IMG/VR virus record: IMGVR_UViG_3300007512_001664
Coordinates: 96,001 to 160,000 of that record
Strand: one strand, 5' to 3'
Length of the DNA: 64,000 nt
Source of the DNA: a virus
Taxonomy: Duplodnaviria; Caudoviricetes
Of the stretch, positions 3,436-49,198 are shown piece by piece. Numbering within the stretch: position 1 is the stretch's first letter; every line of letters begins with the position of its first letter. The translations under genes and the position numbers were made by a program. Under the pieces are notes generated by a model that searched no databases, had not been told where the DNA came from, and saw only the letters and a program-made list of their open reading frames with translations.

Positions 3436-4488
3436 TTAGAACATCCTTACACCAGAAAACGATGAACCTTTACCGATCTTTGGAGCATTAACGCCGGTTT
3501 TTCCGGTACTGCCAAACTTTATAAGAACCACATCATCGTTTGAAACTTCTTCGACGAGACTAAAATCATATATATATGTGGTACCTATCCTATTAGTCCG
3601 ATACCCTTTACGTACTTCAGTACCATTAATATATACTGTAATAGGAATAGAGTCAGCACTAGTACCGGCGTTTGCATATATTATCTCTATATACACATCA
3701 AAAGATATTGTACTTGTTAAAAATTGCGTTGCAGAAGGGTATGTCATTTTAAATGGATTCTGAACTATAGTTCCAATAGCTGGATCAATAGTAGTTCTAT
3801 TAAAGGCTAGATTTCCGCTAGCTGGTATTGTTATATCATTCCCTGTAACTGATACTTTAAAGTTTACAGAGTCAACTGTTGACGATGTTGTATCTAATAA
3901 TCTAGGTGGTATTGTGACAATATCTGTATCTGTTCCATCACTTCGAACTTCAAGGTCTGCTGGTATGCCGTCATACCATTCATGGTCATTCCTTTGATTG
4001 GAGTCACCAGCAGATGCCCATGATTTCACTTTGTATAAGCGTAATTTTGCCCCGGCTTTTAAAGTAACTTTTTGTTCGGTTTCTAATAGGGCTGTAATTT
4101 GACCTATTCTAGCTAATATGTTTTGTATGTCACTTCGGTTCCGGGCTACATTACCTGAAATATCTTGTAATGTTGTATACGCATTATAATTGCGTACACT
4201 TAGATCAATGGTACCTTGTAAGTCTGAATATGTAGGTTTATGATCTGTATCTGTATCTGATCTTAATATATTGAACCCACCAACTGAGAAAAATTGTTTA
4301 TTACCGGTGTTATCTCCGCGACCGGATATTAAATGATAAAAACTAATATTATCAAGACCGATGACAAAATCTCTAAAGTTTAATAGCTTAGTACCGTTGG
4401 TTGTTTCAACAAGCAACTTATCTGTTTTTAATATTTCCGTCCCGATATCTAAATCAGATATATTTACAATTTCGTCTTCTATAGCCAT
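3436..4488 (-). CDS. Short tail fibre/spike-like protein (fibre N-terminal motif, coiled coil, C1q/TNF-like head)
   Basis: N-terminal ISDLDIGTEILKTDKLLVETTNGTKLL resembles fibre anchor motifs; heptad segment NVARNRSDIQNILARIGQITALLE; C-terminal beta domain ending GSSFSGVRMF (gC1q-like). Confidence 0.5.
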   Translation of the reverse strand: MAIEDEIVNISDLDIGTEILKTDKLLVETTNGTKLLNFRDFVIGLDNISFYHLISGRGDNTGNKQFFSVGGFNILRSDTDTDHKPTYSDLQGTIDLSVRNYNAYTTLQDISGNVARNRSDIQNILARIGQITALLETEQKVTLKAGAKLRLYKVKSWASAGDSNQRNDHEWYDGIPADLEVRSDGTDTDIVTIPPRLLDTTSSTVDSVNFKVSVTGNDITIPASGNLAFNRTTIDPAIGTIVQNPFKMTYPSATQFLTSTISFDVYIEIIYANAGTSADSIPITVYINGTEVRKGYRTNRIGTTYIYDFSLVEEVSNDDVVLIKFGSTGKTGVNAPKIGKGSSFSGVRMF

Positions 4489-28852: not shown

Positions 28853-31699
28853 TTATTGTCCAACTATCTCCTGAAAATTAACATCTGTGTTAACAGCGTA
28901 GAAGTTAACCAATATAAACTCTGCTGCTCGAACTGGCTTCAAATAGATATCTACTCTTAGCTCATTTTGATCAATAACACTAGCAGGGTTATTCCTGTCA
29001 TCACAAACAATAAGGTAATCATATACACCTTCTGTTTGTTTGCAGTTTTCAAACATAGGTGTTAATGTATTAACGACCTTGTTTCTTGTTAAGAACGTAT
29101 TAGGTTCAAAGATAAAGAATTTCAATGTCTCTCTTGTTCTTTTCTCTAAATCGAGGAACAATCGACGTACATTAATCCTATCAAATGCCGTAGGTGCTCG
29201 TTGTAATGTCTTTTGACCAAATATAACTATCCCTTCACCCGGGAACTGTGTAACAGGGTTAATTGCAATTTTATATAATTGATCTCGTTGACGTTGGGTC
29301 GGGCTTATTGCGATGTCAGATACACCAGTAACAACACCTCTATTAAACCCAGCTGGTGCATACCAAGGAGCAAACGCCGCATCGTTTTGTGCGTAAATCT
29401 TCGCAGCTACACCAGAGAACGGAATCCATACTTGAGCACCAGCTACAGAATCTTCTACTTTCGCCCAGTTGCCGTATGTTGTCGCAAAATTACTATTAGT
29501 AACACTAAATTGATGCCTCAAAGGCCAATATACGTGCTTACTAAAGTTCTTAGTTTTATCATCTAATACTTTTTGACCAGGTCCAGATCCTTGAACAACT
29601 AACGGGCGGAAGGCGTCAGCAATAAAGATATGATCTTTTCTTGTTTCACGTGCAAATGATTCAAATCTATTGAATACAGTTATATAATTATCCCTATAGG
29701 TTATTGCTGTACCGGCAGTGTTGTCTTTCATGTTAGGGTCTGGTGTATAGAATCCTGTACCTGCACTTGCATCACCAATATCTTTAAAAATAGTATCATC
29801 AAATGTTGATCCATTACCTATAGCATGAACTGTTCCTAATCCAGCTTCAATAGTAACGTCCATTTCAAACACATCAACGTTACTACCAATTTCAAACACT
29901 CTATCCAACTTATCTGGAATACTGCCAATATTTTTATTAGTTACATCATTAGTTGTACTACTATAAACACCTAACGGCCATAACCCTTGCTCTTTCGAAA
30001 AGTTAGCATGTGTCCTTAATCTCGTTGATATTGGTGCTGTTGCTATCGCAGGGTTGCCTGCTGAGTTGTTCGCGGCGCTAATTACACCCATAGCGGCTTG
30101 CAAGCAACCAGCATTTGTACTATTAGTATGAAGTGATCGTACGAATTTACTAGGTGCTCCTCCACTCGCTGTCCATGATCCACTCTTTGTACTAATATAC
30201 GGGTTTACTAAAACTTGAATATTAGGAGAACCAGATTCAACATTTTCAATGAAAAACGAGTTTTGTGGTCCACCGTTTTCGTTTTGAACCCTTCTAGAGG
30301 AATCTAATGAACCTGTATATCCTTCCGCTAAAAATTGAGTTAATTCAATTTCAGAATTTGAGAATGGAGTGTTTCTAATTTTAAAAATACCTAAATTAAT
30401 ACAGTCAATAAATTCAGGCCCTAGTTCCCATTTAGAGATATTTTCAAGAGATTTACTCACATTACTCTTTTCATCAGTTGCAGCGCCGGATAATGAAAAG
30501 TCATATCGGGATGTTGGAACAGTCGCAAAAGCAGCTGGAGTTTTATCTCCTGTTGATCCTGTAGTATAAATACGAGCACCAGCTGTATCATAAGGAGTGG
30601 ATGGGTTAGTACTAGAACTATCTGATATCGCAGCATAATAACCTTCAAAATTGTCGTTAGTATACGTAGCGCCTTTATTTAAAACAATAATACCTGCTTT
30701 ACCTAATTCAGTTGTATTACTAGTAAATGTATTATTAGTTCCTGCGGATAAGTTATTTGACCAAGTAATATTACCATCCTTTACTGCATTGAATTCGTCT
30801 TCGGTTAATTCAATTAAAGACGGATTACCAATAACATAATAATTAGACGAACTTAAAGATACTGTTGTACCGTTATCAGCAGCAAATGGCATATTACCAA
30901 AATTATGTGCGTCTTTACAAAACACCTCACCAGCCACTAATGTCGCACCTGTAGCAGTAAGAGCAGCAAATTCAGTAGCTCCCGACCAGGCAGAGGCAAC
31001 TGCAGTTAGGGTGGTAGAGAAAGAATCAGGTCCAGTGTTTGCACCGTTGCCTTTAGCGTCTCCTTTATGTCCAGATAACGCGGCATAAATGTTCGTGGTT
31101 GTAGATATATAATTTAAGTTATCGTTAGCGTCTTTTATGATTAATTCTACACCTAATTCTGAACCGGTGCCGCTGACGCCATATGAAAACCCTTGTGAAT
31201 TGTAGCCCGTTGGCGGCGCGGCCCAACCTGCGGAATCACCTGAAGGCGATCCTACTGTTGTACCATTGTGTTGTGCATTCGTGGAATCCCAGGCGGCGCT
31301 AGCCATACCAAATACAGATTTATTAACAGAGAGAGACCCGGTTGTAGAATTAAAGCCTGTAACTGTAGCTGTATTAAGCGCAGCGACTGGGTAAGCTAGA
31401 GCAGAGTACCTTCTCGCACCAGTACTGGTACCGTATGGTAAACGAGAACAAAAAACATTAGCATCACTGTTGAATACTTGGCGTGCTGAATGATAAAAAT
31501 ATCTCTCCGCGGCATTAGTTGGCTGGCCGTAAATTTCTTGAAATTCTGCGAATGTACCTACATTAAAAATCTCATCTGTTGGTCCCTGATCGGAGAATCC
31601 TGCAATAAATACACTTGTTCCTACTGCGGCAGCAGGTCGTTGTGTTAAATCGATTTCCCTTATTTCTACACCTGGTGATTGGATTGTTCGTCTACTCAT
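28853..31699 (-). CDS. gp18: Tail sheath protein gp18
   Basis: SPGVEIREIDLT, PWYAPAGFNRG, RDQLYKIAINP, FGQKTLQ, FDRINVRRLF, FEPN, YLIVCDDRNN, KPVRAAEFI. Confidence 0.96.
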   Translation of the reverse strand: MSRRTIQSPGVEIREIDLTQRPAAAVGTSVFIAGFSDQGPTDEIFNVGTFAEFQEIYGQPTNAAERYFYHSARQVFNSDANVFCSRLPYGTSTGARRYSALAYPVAALNTATVTGFNSTTGSLSVNKSVFGMASAAWDSTNAQHNGTTVGSPSGDSAGWAAPPTGYNSQGFSYGVSGTGSELGVELIIKDANDNLNYISTTTNIYAALSGHKGDAKGNGANTGPDSFSTTLTAVASAWSGATEFAALTATGATLVAGEVFCKDAHNFGNMPFAADNGTTVSLSSSNYYVIGNPSLIELTEDEFNAVKDGNITWSNNLSAGTNNTFTSNTTELGKAGIIVLNKGATYTNDNFEGYYAAISDSSSTNPSTPYDTAGARIYTTGSTGDKTPAAFATVPTSRYDFSLSGAATDEKSNVSKSLENISKWELGPEFIDCINLGIFKIRNTPFSNSEIELTQFLAEGYTGSLDSSRRVQNENGGPQNSFFIENVESGSPNIQVLVNPYISTKSGSWTASGGAPSKFVRSLHTNSTNAGCLQAAMGVISAANNSAGNPAIATAPISTRLRTHANFSKEQGLWPLGVYSSTTNDVTNKNIGSIPDKLDRVFEIGSNVDVFEMDVTIEAGLGTVHAIGNGSTFDDTIFKDIGDASAGTGFYTPDPNMKDNTAGTAITYRDNYITVFNRFESFARETRKDHIFIADAFRPLVVQGSGPGQKVLDDKTKNFSKHVYWPLRHQFSVTNSNFATTYGNWAKVEDSVAGAQVWIPFSGVAAKIYAQNDAAFAPWYAPAGFNRGVVTGVSDIAISPTQRQRDQLYKIAINPVTQFPGEGIVIFGQKTLQRAPTAFDRINVRRLFLDLEKRTRETLKFFIFEPNTFLTRNKVVNTLTPMFENCKQTEGVYDYLIVCDDRNNPASVIDQNELRVDIYLKPVRAAEFILVNFYAVNTDVNFQEIVGQ

Positions 31700-31706
31700 A
31701 GTAAAA

Positions 31707-31723
31707 ACCTTTACAATTATTTA
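31707..31723 (-). promoter_or_regulatory. Late promoter TAAATA plus SD-like AAAGGT (gp18)
   Basis: TAAATA 31723-18, AAAGGT 31712-07, ATG 31699. Confidence 0.6.
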
Positions 31724-31747
31724 TTGTTTCCTGTGAACATATTTTAG

Positions 31748-31776
31748 TTGATTTGGCGAAATAAGCAGTATAATAT
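31748..31776 (+). promoter_or_regulatory. Sigma70-like promoter of rmlA (leaderless)
   Basis: TTGATT (31748-53)-N17-TAATAT (31771-76), then 6 nt to the ATG; an overlapping TATAAT lies at 31769-74. Confidence 0.5.
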
Positions 31777-31782
31777 AAATAT

Positions 31783-32676
31783 ATGAAGGGCATCATTTTA
31801 GCTGGCGGGACTGGATCGAGAGTATATCCTAGTACAAAAACAGTTTCAAAACAGCTTTTACCTATTTACGATAAGCCTACAATTTATTATCCTCTATCAA
31901 CTTTAATAAAATTAGGTATTAAAGATGTGATGATTATCACTAATGGTATATCATATCCTCATTTATTAAGTATGTTTAATCAAGGAGATGGTAAGAGTAA
32001 ACCATACTTAGGAATTAATTTTACTTTTAAAGTTCAACCATCTCCTAAGGGTATAGCTGAAGCACTTATTATAGGTGAAGAATGGCAAGGCGATGACGAT
32101 GTATGTTTGATTCTTGGAGATAATATTTTTACTGGTATAAGAAAACCGAAACTTGCGCCACTGGTGCATGCTGGACAGCGATTTGGAAATAAGGCATGTA
32201 TTGTGAGCTATAAAGTTTCAAATCCATCGGAATATGGTGTGGTTGATTTAAATTCACATGGCGATGTTATTTCTATACAAGAGAAACCAACCTGCCCTGA
32301 TAGTAATTTAGCAGTAACGGGTATTTATTTTTATGATAATACTGCTGGAAAAAGAGCACGTGCATTAAAGCCATCTAAGAGAGGTGAGTTAGAAATTACA
32401 GATTTAAATAAAAGTTATTTAGAAGATAACGTATTGGGACATAATACATTAAATAGTAATTATGCTTGGTTTGATACCGGTAATCCTGATGAAATGTTCG
32501 CTGCGTCTATGTATGTTAAATCTATACAAGATAGAACTCAAACAATGATTGGATGTATTGAAGGAGAGGCATATAAACAAGGGTTTATTACACGAGATGA
32601 GTTTATAAAAATTAAAGATAAGATGCCGATGTGCTCATATAAGGCTAATATGGTTATGAGTTATTGCTTTGATTAA
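31783..32676 (+). CDS. rmlA: Glucose-1-phosphate thymidylyltransferase
   Basis: KGIILAGGTGSR, KQLLPIYDKP, QPSPKGIAEA, LILGDNIF, EKP, KPSKRGELEITD, WFDTG. Confidence 0.95.
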   Translation: MKGIILAGGTGSRVYPSTKTVSKQLLPIYDKPTIYYPLSTLIKLGIKDVMIITNGISYPHLLSMFNQGDGKSKPYLGINFTFKVQPSPKGIAEALIIGEEWQGDDDVCLILGDNIFTGIRKPKLAPLVHAGQRFGNKACIVSYKVSNPSEYGVVDLNSHGDVISIQEKPTCPDSNLAVTGIYFYDNTAGKRARALKPSKRGELEITDLNKSYLEDNVLGHNTLNSNYAWFDTGNPDEMFAASMYVKSIQDRTQTMIGCIEGEAYKQGFITRDEFIKIKDKMPMCSYKANMVMSYCFD

Positions 32677-32684
32677 ATATTTTT

Positions 32685-32861
32685 ATGGACGATAAAAAGC
32701 AAAAAGAATTAGCAGAGACTATTGCTGCGTTTGAAGAGAGCGAAAAAATTGCAGCTTTATCAGGGAAGTTAGAAGCTAAAAAAATTACAGTTGCAATTGC
32801 ACGTGCTAATCGAAGAGATGGAAAGAAAAGGCCTTGTTGCTCTGTTGATCCTATAAAATAA
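32685..32861 (+). CDS. Small hypothetical late protein (58 aa)
   Basis: Below the track cut-off; MDDKKQKELAETIAAFEESE...RPCCSVDPIK*; TAAATA 5 nt upstream. Confidence 0.6.
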   Translation: MDDKKQKELAETIAAFEESEKIAALSGKLEAKKITVAIARANRRDGKKRPCCSVDPIK

Positions 32862-32868
32862 TAAGACG

Positions 32869-32961
32869 ATGATTAGCAAAAAACAAAAATATGTATGGTG
32901 GGTAATTATATTTATTTTTGCCATACTAAACGGTGTAATTATTGGTAAGTATCTATCCTAA
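32869..32961 (+). CDS. 30-aa single-pass membrane peptide
   Basis: MISKKQKYVWWVIIFIFAILNGVIIGKYLS* fills the gap between neighbouring ORFs. Confidence 0.5.
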   Translation: MISKKQKYVWWVIIFIFAILNGVIIGKYLS

Positions 32962-32964
32962 ATA
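32959..32964 (+). promoter_or_regulatory. Late promoter TAAATA of the DUF1552 gene
   Basis: 5 nt upstream of ATG 32970; overlaps the upstream TAA stop. Confidence 0.6.
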
Positions 32965-32969
32965 ATTCT

Positions 32970-34214
32970 ATGAACAGGAGGCAGTTTATAGGAGCATTAG
33001 GAGCGTCGTTTGCTTTACCGGGATTGGAGTGTTTCGGTAATGTTTCTGAAGACATAAAAAGATTAGCTGTAGTTTATGTACCTAATGGTATAAACATGCA
33101 CCATTGGACTCCAAGTGCATATGGAGATATAATTGATATACCAAATACTCTATCTCCACTTGAAGCTCATTTAAATGAAACGCAAGTTATTTCTGGTTTA
33201 ACCCACGATAAAGCACGAGCTAATGGTGACGGGGCTGGCGATCATGCTCGAGCAGCTTCTACATTTTTAACTGGAAAGCAAGCTCATAAACATGAATCAA
33301 AAATTAGATCAGGTAAATCTGTTGATCAATACATAGCCGACAAATATAATGGAGTCACTCGATTCGATAGTTTACAAGTTACTGGCAGTAAGGCTCGTTT
33401 AGTAGGTAAATGTGATTCAGGTTATAGTTGTGCTTATCAATATAACTTGTCATGGAAGAATGCTCAACTGCCTATGGCAGCAATGCATGACCCGCAAGAT
33501 ATTTTTAATAGACTTTTTAATGTAAAGACGTTAGAGCAAAAACAATTAGTACATAAAAAATCTATTCTTGATTTTGTATTGGAGGAAAGTAAGACCTTGT
33601 CAGAAAAACTACCTACATCTGATAGAGTTAAGCTTGATGAATATATGTATGCAGTAAGGGAGGTTGAAAAGGACTTACAGACTAGAGAAAGGTTTAAACT
33701 TGATAAAGATTTTGAGCTCGATTTTGAAGTAAATAAAAAATCAAATAAAATAAGACTTTTATATAAGCTTATGCATCTAGCGTTCCTTAATGACACAACA
33801 CGTGTTATAACCTTTCTGACACAACACGATGGTTATAATGGCCCGCATAGAGAGATAGGAATAGCTGATGGTCACCATAGTCTGTCTCATCATCAAAAAG
33901 ATCCTAAAAAATTACATGACCTAGCAATGATAGATTTGTTTAATGTAAGATTGTTTTCTGAGTTTATTACTAAACTTAAAAAAGATAACTTACTAGAAAA
34001 TACAGATGTAATTTATGGTGCAGGTATATCAGACGGAAATAGACATAATCATGATGAATTACCGGTATTATTAGTGGGTGGAAAAAATAAAGGTAAACAT
34101 TTTAGAGTAGAAAAAGAAAAACCAATGTGTGATTTATTTGTAAGTTTGTTGCATAAGCATGGAATAGATATGCACCATTTTGGAGATTCTACGGGAGAGT
34201 TAAATATCGTTTAA
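32970..34214 (+). CDS. DUF1552 (HxxSHH) family protein with Tat signal peptide
   Basis: MNRRQF Tat motif; YVPNG, GDHARAASTFLTG, SVDQ, CDSGYSCAY, HHSLSHH, GISDGNRHNHDELPVLLVGG. Confidence 0.88.
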   Translation: MNRRQFIGALGASFALPGLECFGNVSEDIKRLAVVYVPNGINMHHWTPSAYGDIIDIPNTLSPLEAHLNETQVISGLTHDKARANGDGAGDHARAASTFLTGKQAHKHESKIRSGKSVDQYIADKYNGVTRFDSLQVTGSKARLVGKCDSGYSCAYQYNLSWKNAQLPMAAMHDPQDIFNRLFNVKTLEQKQLVHKKSILDFVLEESKTLSEKLPTSDRVKLDEYMYAVREVEKDLQTRERFKLDKDFELDFEVNKKSNKIRLLYKLMHLAFLNDTTRVITFLTQHDGYNGPHREIGIADGHHSLSHHQKDPKKLHDLAMIDLFNVRLFSEFITKLKKDNLLENTDVIYGAGISDGNRHNHDELPVLLVGGKNKGKHFRVEKEKPMCDLFVSLLHKHGIDMHHFGDSTGELNIV

Positions 34215-34798
34215 ATTAACTTTGTTTCTAATCGTGTAAATTCAAAAGTAGCAGAAGAGGTAATTTCTTCTCCTGTAGCATAGTTCCATTTAATTTCAGT
34301 TAATCTAGTAGGGAATGCGCCAATATAGTCCCATTGAATTTTTTTATTTTCATATTCATCTAAACCGTATACTGTTAAATTAGAGGAATATATAGGTAGT
34401 TGTTGGGACGGTGCCATTAATTGTTGAGGTGATTTATATTTTATAATATCATCTTCATTAAAATTGCCAGTTTTAACATCGTTAATAATATCAAGCCATT
34501 TATATATTGCCCAATAGTTATTAAATTCATTATCAATTCTAAAATCTAGATTTAAAGATTCATATGCTGGTCGAGCATGAGAACTGACTTTTATAGTTTG
34601 CGCACCGTATGGTAGTGTTTTTTCTGGTATACTAATGGTAGGTGTTACGGTACCAGCGACACTAATTTCTAAACTATTAGCATCGATTCTATTTGTGTTT
34701 CTGGTTATGTTATCTACAATATTTTTTATACCTTCAGGTAAATTTAAAACCAGTATAAATTTATCATGTCTATTTTTATTAAGTGGTGCTTGATTCAT
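34211..34798 (-). CDS. gp3: Tail completion/sheath stabiliser gp3
   Basis: YESLNLDFRIDNEFNNYWAIYKWL, then GAFPTRL and ATFEFT. Confidence 0.75.
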   Translation of the reverse strand: MNQAPLNKNRHDKFILVLNLPEGIKNIVDNITRNTNRIDANSLEISVAGTVTPTISIPEKTLPYGAQTIKVSSHARPAYESLNLDFRIDNEFNNYWAIYKWLDIINDVKTGNFNEDDIIKYKSPQQLMAPSQQLPIYSSNLTVYGLDEYENKKIQWDYIGAFPTRLTEIKWNYATGEEITSSATFEFTRLETKLI

Positions 34799-36513
34799 AC
34801 TTTAATATATCCTTGTGCTTCTAATTCGTCCATATCTGTATTGTAGTTAGGAGCTCCGTCCTCATTAAAAATATTTATATCTGTAAAATGTACTGAAGGC
34901 GGATTCCAGCTGTCATCAATATTTTGCATTTTATAATCTTGCAAGAAGTTACTAAATTTTTGATCAATATATGGACCTAGTTCGATTTTTGCGGGGCGTT
35001 GATTATCGTCGATTTCTATAACATTATAATATTTTTGTATAACGCTATTTTCTAATATTAATAACGCCCATACCATTGCCATTACTCTGTCGTCAAAATC
35101 AAAGCCAGGCTGAGCAGCCCAAGAACCGTTCGGATACCGTACGAAGTTTTTCATTTCTACGACAGATGTTTTTGATTTTATGTCAACACATTTAATATCG
35201 TTAACCCAATATCTCATATTAGTAATACCCTTATATTTGGTATTAGTATGAGCGTATACTCCTAACCTGTCATATTTAATTTGACCTATTTTAGGGGACC
35301 AATTGACGATACTTCTATAATTATATTGGTGATATAAATTATCTACAACTTGACTACCGCAATTATTTCTTTCAATTAACACAGGAGGTGCTCCCCAGTG
35401 ATAACATATATCTCGAACTTTAGTAGTAAATTCAAACGGATTAATTTCGTTAGATGCATACTCTGCAACTTGTTTTATATGTTGTAAGTCAGTTATATCT
35501 AAGACTTGTATAACGCTATAGTTTTGACCGACACCTTCAGCTACATCAACACCAATAGTATATAAATGATCTTTATCTGGTTCTTCCCACACTCTATAAC
35601 ACCCATCGTCAAATACATATGTCGGTTCAGTTGTATTCGATAATAATTTTTCAAAGAAAATTTCATCAATAAACGAATCTCCTGTATCAAGAAACTTACA
35701 ATCAAATTCTTGAGCGAACGCTTCTTCACTACCTATAGACTTAATAGTGTCTTGTTTCCATTTTTCATCTCTACCGGGAACTTCATGCCATAGTATAGTT
35801 TCTGATTTCCAGTTGTTTACTCCTTTTTCTGCTTCTGTATATAACGTATAAAATAAGTTACCACTACCATTAGGGGTAGATGCTACAAATATTTTAGATT
35901 TTGTTGATGAGGAAATAATTGGATATACTGACTTCCAAAATTCTTCAACAAGATTATTTGGGATAAAAGCTAACTCATCTAGAATTAATACATTTACAGA
36001 TTCACCGCGACCAGCGTCCGAGCTAGTAGTGCTAATACCTATACTACTACCGTTTGCTAATTTCATGGATGTTTTACCATATTCTAAAACCCCGGGTTTA
36101 AGATAGTTCGGTAAATTTTCATATGCGAGTCTAACTCTCGAAAAAATACTAATTGCAGTTTGTTCTTTGTTAGCCACGATTAATATTCGCTGATCGTCCT
36201 GAAAGCAGGCAATCCATAAAGCGTAAATCGTCATCATGGTAGTTTTGCCTGTTTGTCTACTAGCTAAGCAAGCTACAAATCTGTTATCTCTCAGACTACG
36301 TAATACTCTTTTCTGACAAGGGTATAAGTTTATTTTTATTTTACCTCGATCAAGGTTAACAATGTGAAAAAAGTTTTCTGCAAAATAGAGAATGTTCTGT
36401 TTAGCTTTTTTAAGCGATTTGACCATGTCTGGAGTCCATTCATACTCCATGTTAGGGTTAGGTAAATTTGTATTACCTAAATAGAATTTATCGTCTTTTT
36501 TTAGCCTGGGCAC
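34795..36513 (-). CDS. gp17: Terminase large subunit gp17
   Basis: SRQTGKT (Walker A), LILDELAF (Walker B), ASTPNG, FAQEFDC, nuclease GVDVAEG...IERNN...DDRVMA; GTG start. Confidence 0.96.
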   Translation of the reverse strand: MPRLKKDDKFYLGNTNLPNPNMEYEWTPDMVKSLKKAKQNILYFAENFFHIVNLDRGKIKINLYPCQKRVLRSLRDNRFVACLASRQTGKTTMMTIYALWIACFQDDQRILIVANKEQTAISIFSRVRLAYENLPNYLKPGVLEYGKTSMKLANGSSIGISTTSSDAGRGESVNVLILDELAFIPNNLVEEFWKSVYPIISSSTKSKIFVASTPNGSGNLFYTLYTEAEKGVNNWKSETILWHEVPGRDEKWKQDTIKSIGSEEAFAQEFDCKFLDTGDSFIDEIFFEKLLSNTTEPTYVFDDGCYRVWEEPDKDHLYTIGVDVAEGVGQNYSVIQVLDITDLQHIKQVAEYASNEINPFEFTTKVRDICYHWGAPPVLIERNNCGSQVVDNLYHQYNYRSIVNWSPKIGQIKYDRLGVYAHTNTKYKGITNMRYWVNDIKCVDIKSKTSVVEMKNFVRYPNGSWAAQPGFDFDDRVMAMVWALLILENSVIQKYYNVIEIDDNQRPAKIELGPYIDQKFSNFLQDYKMQNIDDSWNPPSVHFTDINIFNEDGAPNYNTDMDELEAQGYIKV

Positions 36514-48157: not shown

Positions 48158-49053
48158 TTTGTATCTAGTGGTTCGAATTGCTTGCTCAAAGAGAGCACAT
48201 TATCGTTTAACATACCACCGGCTGCATATTCATGACCACCACCGTCGCATATCTTCTTAGCAAAAGTACTTAAATTAAAATCTATATTTCTATTTCTTCG
48301 GAGATATACTCTTTTGTTTTTTAAATTAATCATCATACATACATCGCAATCATAAGTATCAACAATATATTGACCTAAATCGTTAATATATTCATTTGCA
48401 AATGTACTAATAAAGTTATATTCCTTTCCACCTATAGATAATTTTGCTTTAAATAAATCTATGGTTTCTCTCATTTTTTTAAATTTATAAAAATGATAAC
48501 TAATTATTTTATTTTGTTCGTTTGTGAATCCGAAGAAACCATTTTCAAAATCGTTAATAAAGTTTTGCAGCTTATCACCATTTTTGTACCATAGATAGAA
48601 ATTTAATTTATTACTCTCCGGGTATTTTAATTCATAACAATCATAATCATTTGCAAATGTAATTAATTTTTTCTGTTCCTTAGTAAGATTTACATTTGGA
48701 TATATATGATTTAATATTTGATATAAATGTTTACTGCATGATGGTTGATTTACATTTATATATGTTTTAGCAAAAGAATAATCATCCTCATGAGATTTAT
48801 GATGATCAAAAATAATTACATTTTTTTTGTCTATTAAATCTTTAATTTCTGTAGTATCTAAATCAAAGAAGTATACTCTTTTATAATCCTCAATTTTATT
48901 ATAATTGAGCCATCCTAATAGTTTTTCACGTATGTTAGAAACCTTTAATGTAACAGCTTTTGGTTTAGTCTGTTTAAACCATGTATAAATTAAATAGCTA
49001 CAACAACCGTCGAGATCTAGGTCGGTAAAAATTATTTCATCCTTATTATTCAT
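48154..49053 (-). CDS. DHH/DHHA1 phosphoesterase
   Basis: TDLDLDG, FDL, FDHH, CSKH, GGGHEYAAG. Confidence 0.88.
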   Translation of the reverse strand: MNNKDEIIFTDLDLDGCCSYLIYTWFKQTKPKAVTLKVSNIREKLLGWLNYNKIEDYKRVYFFDLDTTEIKDLIDKKNVIIFDHHKSHEDDYSFAKTYINVNQPSCSKHLYQILNHIYPNVNLTKEQKKLITFANDYDCYELKYPESNKLNFYLWYKNGDKLQNFINDFENGFFGFTNEQNKIISYHFYKFKKMRETIDLFKAKLSIGGKEYNFISTFANEYINDLGQYIVDTYDCDVCMMINLKNKRVYLRRNRNIDFNLSTFAKKICDGGGHEYAAGGMLNDNVLSLSKQFEPLDTK

Positions 49054-49198
49054 TTAGTTCTTCTTCTGTTAAAATATTACCATAATGAGGCCAACCGTAA
49101 TCTTCTGGATGTTCTCCTAAATATCTCCAACGTATTACATTAGTATCGGGATTGCGTTCGTATATCTTTGGTCTTTTTTTATTGTTATCCTCAGACAT
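49046..49198 (-). CDS. Small hypothetical protein (50 aa)
   Basis: Below the track cut-off; MSEDNNKKRPKIYERNPDTNVIRWRYLGEHPEDYGWPHYGNILTEEELNE*; TAAATA 6 nt upstream. Confidence 0.6.
   Translation of the reverse strand: MSEDNNKKRPKIYERNPDTNVIRWRYLGEHPEDYGWPHYGNILTEEELNE

Follow-up and report, generated by a model that had tools for sequence, protein, structure and literature searches.

Few gene families of Planctomycetes and Verrucomicrobia have expanded as much as DUF1552 and DUF1501 with their PSCyt/PSD haem partners, and to our knowledge no function has been established for any of them in some twenty years. What, then, would a virus do with a DUF1552 protein? An intact gene of this family lies in a 64,000-nucleotide stretch of DNA, hereafter called the window, which is the part from base 96001 to base 160000 of an IMG/VR virus record; the record, 200,819 bp long and bearing direct terminal repeats, is complete by CheckV. 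The family and its pairing with haem proteins were known before; a phage-borne copy is mentioned in no paper of the literature searched. We consider it somewhat probable that the phage gene encodes an auxiliary subunit of catalytic type, made late in infection and exported by the twin-arginine translocation (Tat) pathway, and that its periplasmic partner is a PSCyt3/PSD haem protein of the host.

An intact and conserved member of the DUF1552 family

The gene encodes 414 amino acids (aa) from an ATG codon, and its frame is open for only seven codons upstream, so that the start is unambiguous. A search with the Pfam profile PF07586 (DUF1552/HXXSHH) returned a match over profile positions 1-306 of 307 (E 4.5e-78, 263.4 bits), far above the cut-off, a gathering score of 30 bits, and a six-frame search of the whole genome with the same profile gave 264.4 bits. 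The initial annotation of this DNA, made from the letters alone, had described an intact 414-aa open reading frame (ORF) with an RRQF leader, the His/Cys motifs of the family and a TAAATA-N5-ATG start; all are present, the motifs being located by regular expression at residues 3 (RRQF), 90 (GDH), 148 (CDSGYSCAY), 302 (HHSLSHH) and 359 (HNH). In an alignment of 75 sequences, the phage protein has eight of eight invariant and 31 of 31 near-invariant family columns. The invariant residues include D201, D218, H303, H307 and H359, and H92 is at least 90% conserved. Phage copies as a clade keep 85 of the 95 positions that are conserved in at least 90% of cellular copies, including all His/Asp/Cys motifs, and deviate at ten. 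Several loop deletions have shortened the phage protein in comparison with its cellular relatives, which measure 430-450 aa. By these comparisons the gene product is a true DUF1552 protein with a conserved twin-arginine leader.

The gene is fixed in a lineage of related phages. A collection of 5.8 billion proteins holds 77 clusters at 62-91% identity to it, nearly all of 414-416 aa, after which identity drops to 49% or less; at 50% clustering, the phage group collapses to a single representative. IMG/VR contains 25 contigs with this type of DUF1552. About half of them share the gene order of the window, and the remainder carry the gene elsewhere in related phages, either beside replication genes or in a glycan island with carbamoyltransferases, a glycosyltransferase and a pyruvyl transferase. 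The ratio of nonsynonymous to synonymous substitution rates (dN/dS) between pairs of phage copies is 0.01-0.10, and the guanine-plus-cytosine (GC) content of the gene, 34.2% overall and 21% at third codon positions (GC3), compares with 33.6% for the genome. Because of this distribution, the low dN/dS and the matching GC content, the gene is considered to be old in phages, mobile among them and under strong purifying selection. The initial annotation had spoken of an auxiliary gene captured by a phage. Its auxiliary nature is borne out by a complete genome with terminal repeats, flanking sheath, tube-like and terminase large subunit (TerL) genes, and selection on the gene; the picture of a recent or one-off capture gives way to that of an old, compositionally adapted and mobile gene of a whole phage lineage. 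Neither PHROGs v4, in which no family matches the protein, nor 50,697 GenBank phage records contain a DUF1552 match. The only other DUF1552 found in IMG/VR is on the contig L147 (62.8 kb, 48% GC), at 37% identity and with no PSCyt3/PSD gene within 5 kb; an independent viral copy is one possible reading, a fragment of a cell's genome or of a prophage another.

A bacterial gene in a phage contig could also result from chimeric assembly or cellular contamination, and the suspected region, 31.7-34.2 kb, was examined accordingly. About 12 independent IMG/VR and assembly contigs from other samples show the same succession of genes, namely sheath, NTP-transferase, DUF1552, tube-like gene and TerL, with DUF1552 identities of 76-99%. 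Logan contigs from runs of three studies extend across the junctions (31495-32898, 32872-33210, 33823-34439 and 34133-34503) and differ little or not at all, and the runs that contain the region are marine, seawater and estuary metagenomes from 13 studies. The gene, moreover, has the GC content of the phage and bears a phage-type promoter motif, and no copy above 46% identity exists among 185,579 cellular species representatives. An artefact is effectively refuted.

A haem-protein partner that the phage does not encode

Pairs of PSCyt3/PSD (DUF1587-DUF1595-DUF1592-DUF1588-DUF1585) and DUF1552 genes occur in Planctomycetes and Verrucomicrobia (He et al., 2017, PMC5615132); it was in Rhodopirellula baltica that their domains were originally defined. 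Among the 80 cellular loci that we compared in named species genomes, about 39 have a same-strand gene of 600-1,000 aa directly upstream of DUF1552, the two-gene module being defined by an adjacent PSCyt1-PSD3-PSD5-PSD4-PSCyt3-PSD2 gene. Ten large neighbouring ORFs were assigned with Pfam: seven have the architecture PSCyt1-PSD3-(CBM60)-PSD5-PSD4-PSCyt3-PSD2, with two CxxCH motifs each, two are HEAT-repeat proteins and one is an argininosuccinate synthase. The conserved CxxCH motifs of one partner protein (L119) are C58/C61/H62 and C528/C531/H532 (alignment A3).

No such gene adjoins the phage DUF1552. The initial annotation had noted the absence of the usual partner from the window, and profile searches extend its absence to the whole genome: a six-frame search with a profile of the 39 partners, filters off, yielded nothing better than E 1.4, and neither PF07631 nor PF07627 has a match anywhere in the 200,819 bp. 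Similarly, the surroundings of DUF1552 in ten other viral loci, covered over 5-8 kb, contain no haem-partner gene.

The phage protein is nevertheless predicted to have kept the surface for this partner. For a complex model, residues 24-414 of the phage protein were combined with residues 55-651 of a partner protein encoded in a Red Sea Verrucomicrobiales metagenome-assembled genome; it reached an ipSAE score of 0.86, against 0.01 for the best of three controls. Of 80 solved complexes, 58 attain the mark applied, as do 2 of 110 mismatched pairs, a calibration that is only roughly applicable here, since we used our own alignments. The phage protein contributes to the predicted interface (residues 141-235 and 290-304) with its CDSGYSCAY loop, with the helical hairpin 190-235 and with neighbours of H92 and H302/H303; the partner does so mainly with PSD3 and PSD5. 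Conservation between phage and cells is 0.48 in the interface and 0.42 in the rest of the protein (p 0.14), and a single one of the ten deviating positions (E172 to M) falls within the interface. The model supports docking of the phage subunit on a host haem protein. In the same model, the contact is made mainly through a highly conserved PSD3 segment (residues 139-195) and not through the haem motifs.

Compared with the cellular pairs, the phage protein thus shares the full-length Pfam family, the invariant residues and the twin-arginine leader, and the model predicts that it could still dock onto the haem partner. It differs in being encoded by a virus with no partner gene genome-wide, in being 20-35 residues shorter through the loop deletions, in belonging to a separate, long-stemmed clade with at most 46% identity to cellular copies of the species genomes searched, and in having a gene of 34% GC with a late-type phage promoter at its start codon. 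A related arrangement is the 'conserved genetic module' of DUF1501 and PSCyt1/PSCyt2/PSD1 in bacteria of the Planctomycetes–Verrucomicrobia–Chlamydiae (PVC) group (Kamneva et al., 2012, PMC3542564). The logic is the same, an enzyme-like protein with a Tat leader and a large haem-motif protein, often with carbohydrate-binding domains and with a function that is likewise unknown, and relatives of the phage DUF1552 adjoin DUF1501 on virus-like contigs. DUF1501 is, however, another Pfam family, with which profile comparison reveals only the leader and first strand in common, and it is absent from this phage.

Fold and putative active site

AlphaFold2, supplied with 75 diverse homologues, produced a model with a mean predicted local distance difference test (pLDDT) of 91 and a predicted template modelling score (pTM) of 0.86. 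Foldseek searches of the PDB and of Swiss-Prot models retrieved type I sulfatases, LtaS and phosphoglycerol transferase (E ~1e-6, ~10% identity, probability 1.00), and an exhaustive structural scan matched NPPs, sulfatases and PafA, together with the envelope transferases LtaS, EptA/MCR-1 and PbgA, at Z-scores of 15-17 (Z 15 for the envelope transferases) without singling out any subfamily. The shared core fold spans residues 28-414, with a root-mean-square deviation of 3.3-4.5 Å over 240-270 residues. On the strength of these matches, DUF1552 is placed in the alkaline-phosphatase superfamily, and the phage protein is by its model a member. A profile search of the PDB gave chance matches only (E at least 0.12) and thus no sequence-related solved structure.

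Within this common core, the phage protein stands apart from sulfatases, NPP, PafA, LtaS and EptA: identity is about 10%, the conserved residues are rich in His, G-D-H is assigned to the equivalent helix start, and residues 190-241 form an inserted, long helical hairpin. The formylglycine motif C/S-x-P/A-x-R is absent from the 414 residues (regular expression); a type I (formylglycine) sulfatase was rejected for lack of C/S-x-P-x-R, and for the same reason the protein is not classed as a sulfatase. When positions of the superfamily are mapped by secondary-structure order, G-D-H would stand at the helix start where the superfamily puts its nucleophile, and the invariant His/Asp/Cys set, judged from the fold, is presumably a metal centre. 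The earlier designation as a metalloprotein agrees with the fold and with the invariant His and Asp residues, which make metal binding itself plausible.

A probable late promoter and a twin-arginine leader

The sequence context of the TAAATA hexamer upstream of DUF1552, CCTAAATA, has six of the eight bases of the T4 late core TATAAATA. Of the 270 called genes, 66 have TAAATA upstream of their ATG at a distance of 3-13 nt, in most cases 5-9 nt, compared with 3.5 expected from its frequency in the genome. In the window, the motif is confined to the structural and island part (1-40.7 kb); the replication module is devoid of it at that spacing, except before a 50-aa ORF (49046-49198). The baseplate-wedge and tail-tube genes have it in front of them, and it lies 18 nt upstream of the sheath gene. 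A homologue of the late sigma factor gp55 is encoded in the cyanophage order uvsW-gp55-gp47-gp46. Most phage homologues have TAAATA at the same spacing upstream of DUF1552, despite differing DNA and genomic context, and several of them carry the full TATAAATA. The TAAATA element that the initial annotation took for a late promoter is, in this way, a position-fixed motif of the structural module, present genome-wide and conserved upstream of the homologues, and late transcription of DUF1552 is well supported by comparison. Genome-wide, 54 genes have TAAATA 5-9 nt from the ATG with no Shine-Dalgarno sequence between (consensus TAAATA-ATTAnATG), which implies leaderless or almost leaderless late mRNAs; near-start examples in the window are at 4488, 8943, 16116, 16163, 18864, 28209, 32685, 36527, 37844 and 39862.

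The leader reads N-R-R-Q-F-I-G followed by ALGASFALPGL, and fits an S/T-R-R-x-F-L-K-like motif with a mildly hydrophobic h-region. Among the 75 family members, R3 never varies and conservation reaches at least 90% at R4, L7, L16 and P17; the RR pair is retained in every phage copy. The leader named at the outset is therefore a conserved feature of family and phages alike, and from motif and conservation we infer that the phage DUF1552 is exported by the Tat pathway.

Two more ORFs of the phage, of 439 and 458 aa (L148:1064-2383 and L148:3765-5141; G000 79064-80383 and 81765-83141), have twin-arginine-like leaders, NRRGFL and SRRDFF, and belong to no Pfam family. They were considered as hidden partners and rejected, their alignment to DUF1552 being limited to the leader. 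The phage may route several proteins through Tat.

Genomic setting

The genome is that of a distant T4-like myovirus, whose terminase is about 36% identical to cyanomyophage gp17. T4-like homologues include sheath, tail tube, baseplate wedge, portal, prohead protease and major capsid protein, as well as uvsW, gp55, gp47, gp46 and gp44; there are no tRNAs in the window. DUF1552 is the last gene of a plus-strand cassette, after an RmlA-like nucleotidyltransferase gene and a 58-aa ORF, and the cassette is bordered by genes of the minus strand, on the left by that for the sheath and on the right by one for a tube-fold protein, which is followed by TerL (Table 1). The RmlA-like gene accompanies DUF1552 in the syntenic phages; with TIGR01207 (rmlA) it scores 301.6 bits, under the equivalog cut-off of 360.65.

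The middle of the cassette is variable. In L002, a 78-aa 4Fe-4S ferredoxin-like gene replaces the 58-aa ORF, and the slot at 32862-32969 is 404 bases longer, at 32864/32865, in other populations (run X5, and likewise L011 and L012). At the other end, the convergent DUF1552 and tube-fold genes overlap by their stop codons in TTAA (34211-34214), with no spacer or terminator; L011 and L012, which are close relatives, have about 200 bases between the two genes.

Table 1. Features of the DUF1552 locus and the gene for the late sigma homologue (positions in the window)
Feature	Position	Strand	Evidence and remarks
Tail sheath (gp18-like), left cassette border	28853..31699	-	Pfam/PHROG/blastp-type matches
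RmlA-like glucose-1-phosphate thymidylyltransferase, cassette gene 1	31783..32676	+	Pfam NTP_transferase 3.5e-54
58-aa ORF, variable cassette slot	32685..32861	+	Own TAAATA-N5-ATG; no assigned function
TAAATA hexamer	32959..32964	+	5 nt, then ATG at 32970; context CCTAAATA
DUF1552/HXXSHH coding sequence	32970..34214	+	263.4 bits; AlphaFold2 pLDDT 91; dN/dS of phage copies 0.01-0.10
Twin-arginine (Tat-type) leader, residues 1-23	32970..33038	+	N-R-R-Q-F-I-G, mildly hydrophobic stretch, end C-F-G
G90-D91-H92, N-terminus of helix 91-101	33237..33245	+	Putative nucleophile place of the alkaline-phosphatase superfamily, by topology
CDSGYSCAY loop (C148, C154)	33411..33437	+	Invariant in alignment A1; within predicted haem-partner interface
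HHSLSHH (H302-H308), motif naming the family	33873..33893	+	H303, H307 invariant; H302 at least 90% conserved (75 sequences)
H359-N-H361 inside D355-G-N-R-H-N-H-D	34044..34052	+	H359 invariant; D355, G356 at least 90% conserved in cells, kept in phage
Tail-tube-fold protein (gp19/gp3-like), right cassette border	34211..34798	-	phrog_45 tail tube 1.1e-17; weak blastp to P-SSM7 gp3
Terminase large subunit (gp17-like)	34795..36513	-	~36% identity to cyanomyophage gp17
gp55-like late sigma factor	61749..62189	-	blastp P-SSM7 gp55: 49% over 73 aa, E 6.6e-19

Origin of the gene and host of the phage

The best cellular matches, 38-46% identical among 185,579 species genomes, are mostly from Verrucomicrobiota, then from Planctomycetota, with some from Acidobacteriota and one from Armatimonadota. 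Two trees were built, a quick one of 98 rows and a careful one of 70 rows with distant outgroups. The phage clade is fully supported in both (100/100; stem 0.83), and its sister is a second metagenomic group (support 100/99); several viral rows have a deviant amino-acid composition, and compositional attraction may inflate this viral monophyly. With distant outgroups, the viral supergroup falls within the core radiation. In both trees, the viral clade lies in a polytomy of Verrucomicrobiota, Planctomycetota, Acidobacteriota and Armatimonadota sequences, so that no donor phylum can be named. The phylogeny that the initial annotation recommended for identifying a donor lineage has delivered a well-supported viral clade and no donor.

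The contexts of the sister group also look viral (L008 and L123, 31-35% GC, with PHROG hits). L008:1-17302 (35% GC) carries ThyX, Hsp70, DnaJ, a DUF1552 47% identical to that of the window, an N_methyl gene, DUF1501 and tubulin, and its HAD-NTP-transferase fusion is 57% identical to one in this phage (G000 177140-178540); it is probably from a large phage of a similar host. L123:2048-8091 (31% GC) has DUF1501, DUF1552 and a 1,111-aa PSCyt1/PSCyt2/PSD1 haem protein in a row; after them come genes for an RNA ligase of phage type, for a polynucleotide kinase and for T5orf172, and a virus seems here to encode a haem partner too.

A PVC host, as suggested by the initial annotation, appears reasonably probable. 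Besides the Verrucomicrobiota among the best matches, the genome contains, outside the window, two tandem overlapping prepilin-type genes of 331 and 330 aa (G000 63416-65385; L038:3416-5385) with a G|FTLIELL cleavage site (G|FTLIELLVVIAII), H-X9-DG/DA motifs found by regular expression and a tail rich in Trp, DSWGWYWND, that both have in common. Relatives of the pair go by the name of H-X9-DG proteins, some carry DUF1559 and one is from Pedosphaera; in the phage itself, DUF1559 (PF07596) and TIGR04294 (H-X9-DG) give sub-threshold hits only (13.9 bits, and 14.2 bits against a cut-off of 19). This pseudopilin pair, a second family of PVC style in the phage, provides independent support for a PVC host, to which can be added the DUF1501 and N_methyl genes of the related virus-like contig. 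A host from another marine lineage, with or without DUF1552-type modules, to which the 'hallmark' genes came via other viruses, is the less probable case and yet a real possibility. All viral copies form one clade whose cellular sister is not resolved, Acidobacteriota and Armatimonadota stand inside the same radiation, and the 120 best relatives of the RmlA-like gene (69-97% identity), with their cluster members, bear no organism names and are uninformative on the host. GC content speaks for it as well: all 80 cellular loci lie at 47-70%, at least 13 points above the 33.6% of the phage, although T4 itself is about 16 points away from its own host.

Marine relatives of the RmlA-like gene at 70-87% identity are very numerous, and some of them lie on contigs of about 220 kb that occur in dozens of samples. 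These contigs may be other large phages, and the gene may be common among large marine phages.

Proposed role and alternative explanations

The following course of events would agree with the data. A lineage of large marine T4-like phages keeps DUF1552 as an auxiliary gene, which would be transcribed from a gp55-type late promoter abutting the start codon. The protein would fold in the cytoplasm, and its twin-arginine leader would direct it to the Tat pathway of the host for export. Once in the periplasm, it would pair with a PSCyt1-PSD3-PSD5-PSD4-PSCyt3-PSD2 haem protein, presumably a host-encoded one because the phage encodes none, and so add to, or take over, the host system late in infection. 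As a substrate, a carbohydrate that is esterified or modified in some other way would be likely, given that CBM60 is present in cellular partners and that viral copies repeatedly adjoin sugar-nucleotide and glycan genes: in L005, DUF1552 is found among NTP-transferase, glycosyl-, pyruvyl- and carbamoyl-transferase genes, and in L008 a HAD-NTP-transferase gene is near it. Exported auxiliary genes such as pstS and phoA are a known feature of cyanomyophages, and pstS is visible in P-SSM7. They are comparable in being host-derived genes for periplasmic proteins in or near the structural module of marine T4-like phages; the phage DUF1552 differs in family, in its presumed chemistry and Tat-type export, in its probable dependence on a host partner and in having no known function.

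The main rival to this pairing is a stand-alone periplasmic esterase or group transferase comparable to LtaS, EptA or OpgB, which would need no haem partner and would remodel envelope or surface glycans within a glycan programme of the phage, for superinfection exclusion, receptor masking or as an aid to release. The lack of a partner gene beside any viral copy examined (this genome and ten loci) is what such an enzyme would lead one to expect, and its compaction by loop deletions, the ten altered positions, of which one is in the predicted interface, the sugar-nucleotide or glycan neighbours in three virus contexts and the envelope transferases among the structural neighbours point in the same direction. 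We nonetheless hold it to be rather unlikely, since the complex model with a cellular partner scores far above its controls, the interface residues are not relaxed, and the helical hairpin that forms most of the predicted interface is retained. The same predicted binding surface, and the fact that only one subunit is encoded, would also suit a decoy or modulator that binds the host haem partner, displaces the host DUF1552 and shuts down or redirects the system. A pure decoy, however, would not need the candidate catalytic residues, all of which are invariant and under strong purifying selection, and this explanation is very improbable.

Several points weigh against a late-made, exported metalloenzyme that pairs with a haem protein of a PVC host. 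We know of no experiment on any DUF1552 protein. The conserved His and Asp residues are candidates for one clustered site, and the partner in the complex model is heterologous, from a bacterium of 58% GC, so that the model speaks for a kept family surface and not for binding in the real host. The promoter context reads CCTAAATA, not TATAAATA, and none of the sequencing runs holding the stretch is an RNA run. No TAT_signal match was obtained in the Pfam scan at E up to 0.01, nor any Tat-signal match in the NCBIfam scan at E up to 1, such short models being insensitive. The GC gap between the phage and all cellular loci belongs here as well. Finally, the function of the module is described as unknown in the literature (PMC5615132; PMC3542564 for the sister DUF1501 module).

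Implications for PVC bacteria and their phages

Very few phages of marine PVC bacteria are known, and it was not until 2015 that a first lytic phage of Verrucomicrobia, P8625, was reported (PMC4642752). We tentatively suggest, with less than even confidence, that abundant, uncultivated T4-like myoviruses of marine PVC bacteria and a second, virus-like group bearing DUF1501/PSCyt2-PSD1 share a viral DUF1552 clade and hijack the haem/phosphatase-fold machinery of their hosts late in infection. If true, this would be the first viral stake in this periplasmic system. A lone subunit that is selected, exported and made late would have to be useful within minutes to hours, and probably works with partners with which it has not co-evolved. 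It would offer a minimal, partner-less and compacted form of the subunit for working out the function of the system: a small and tractable protein for expression, metal analysis and structure determination, and a natural 'add-back' experiment. For ocean viromes, it would also provide a sequence marker of PVC phages, and DUF1552 together with H-X9-DG pseudopilin genes is a candidate marker for phages of marine PVC bacteria.

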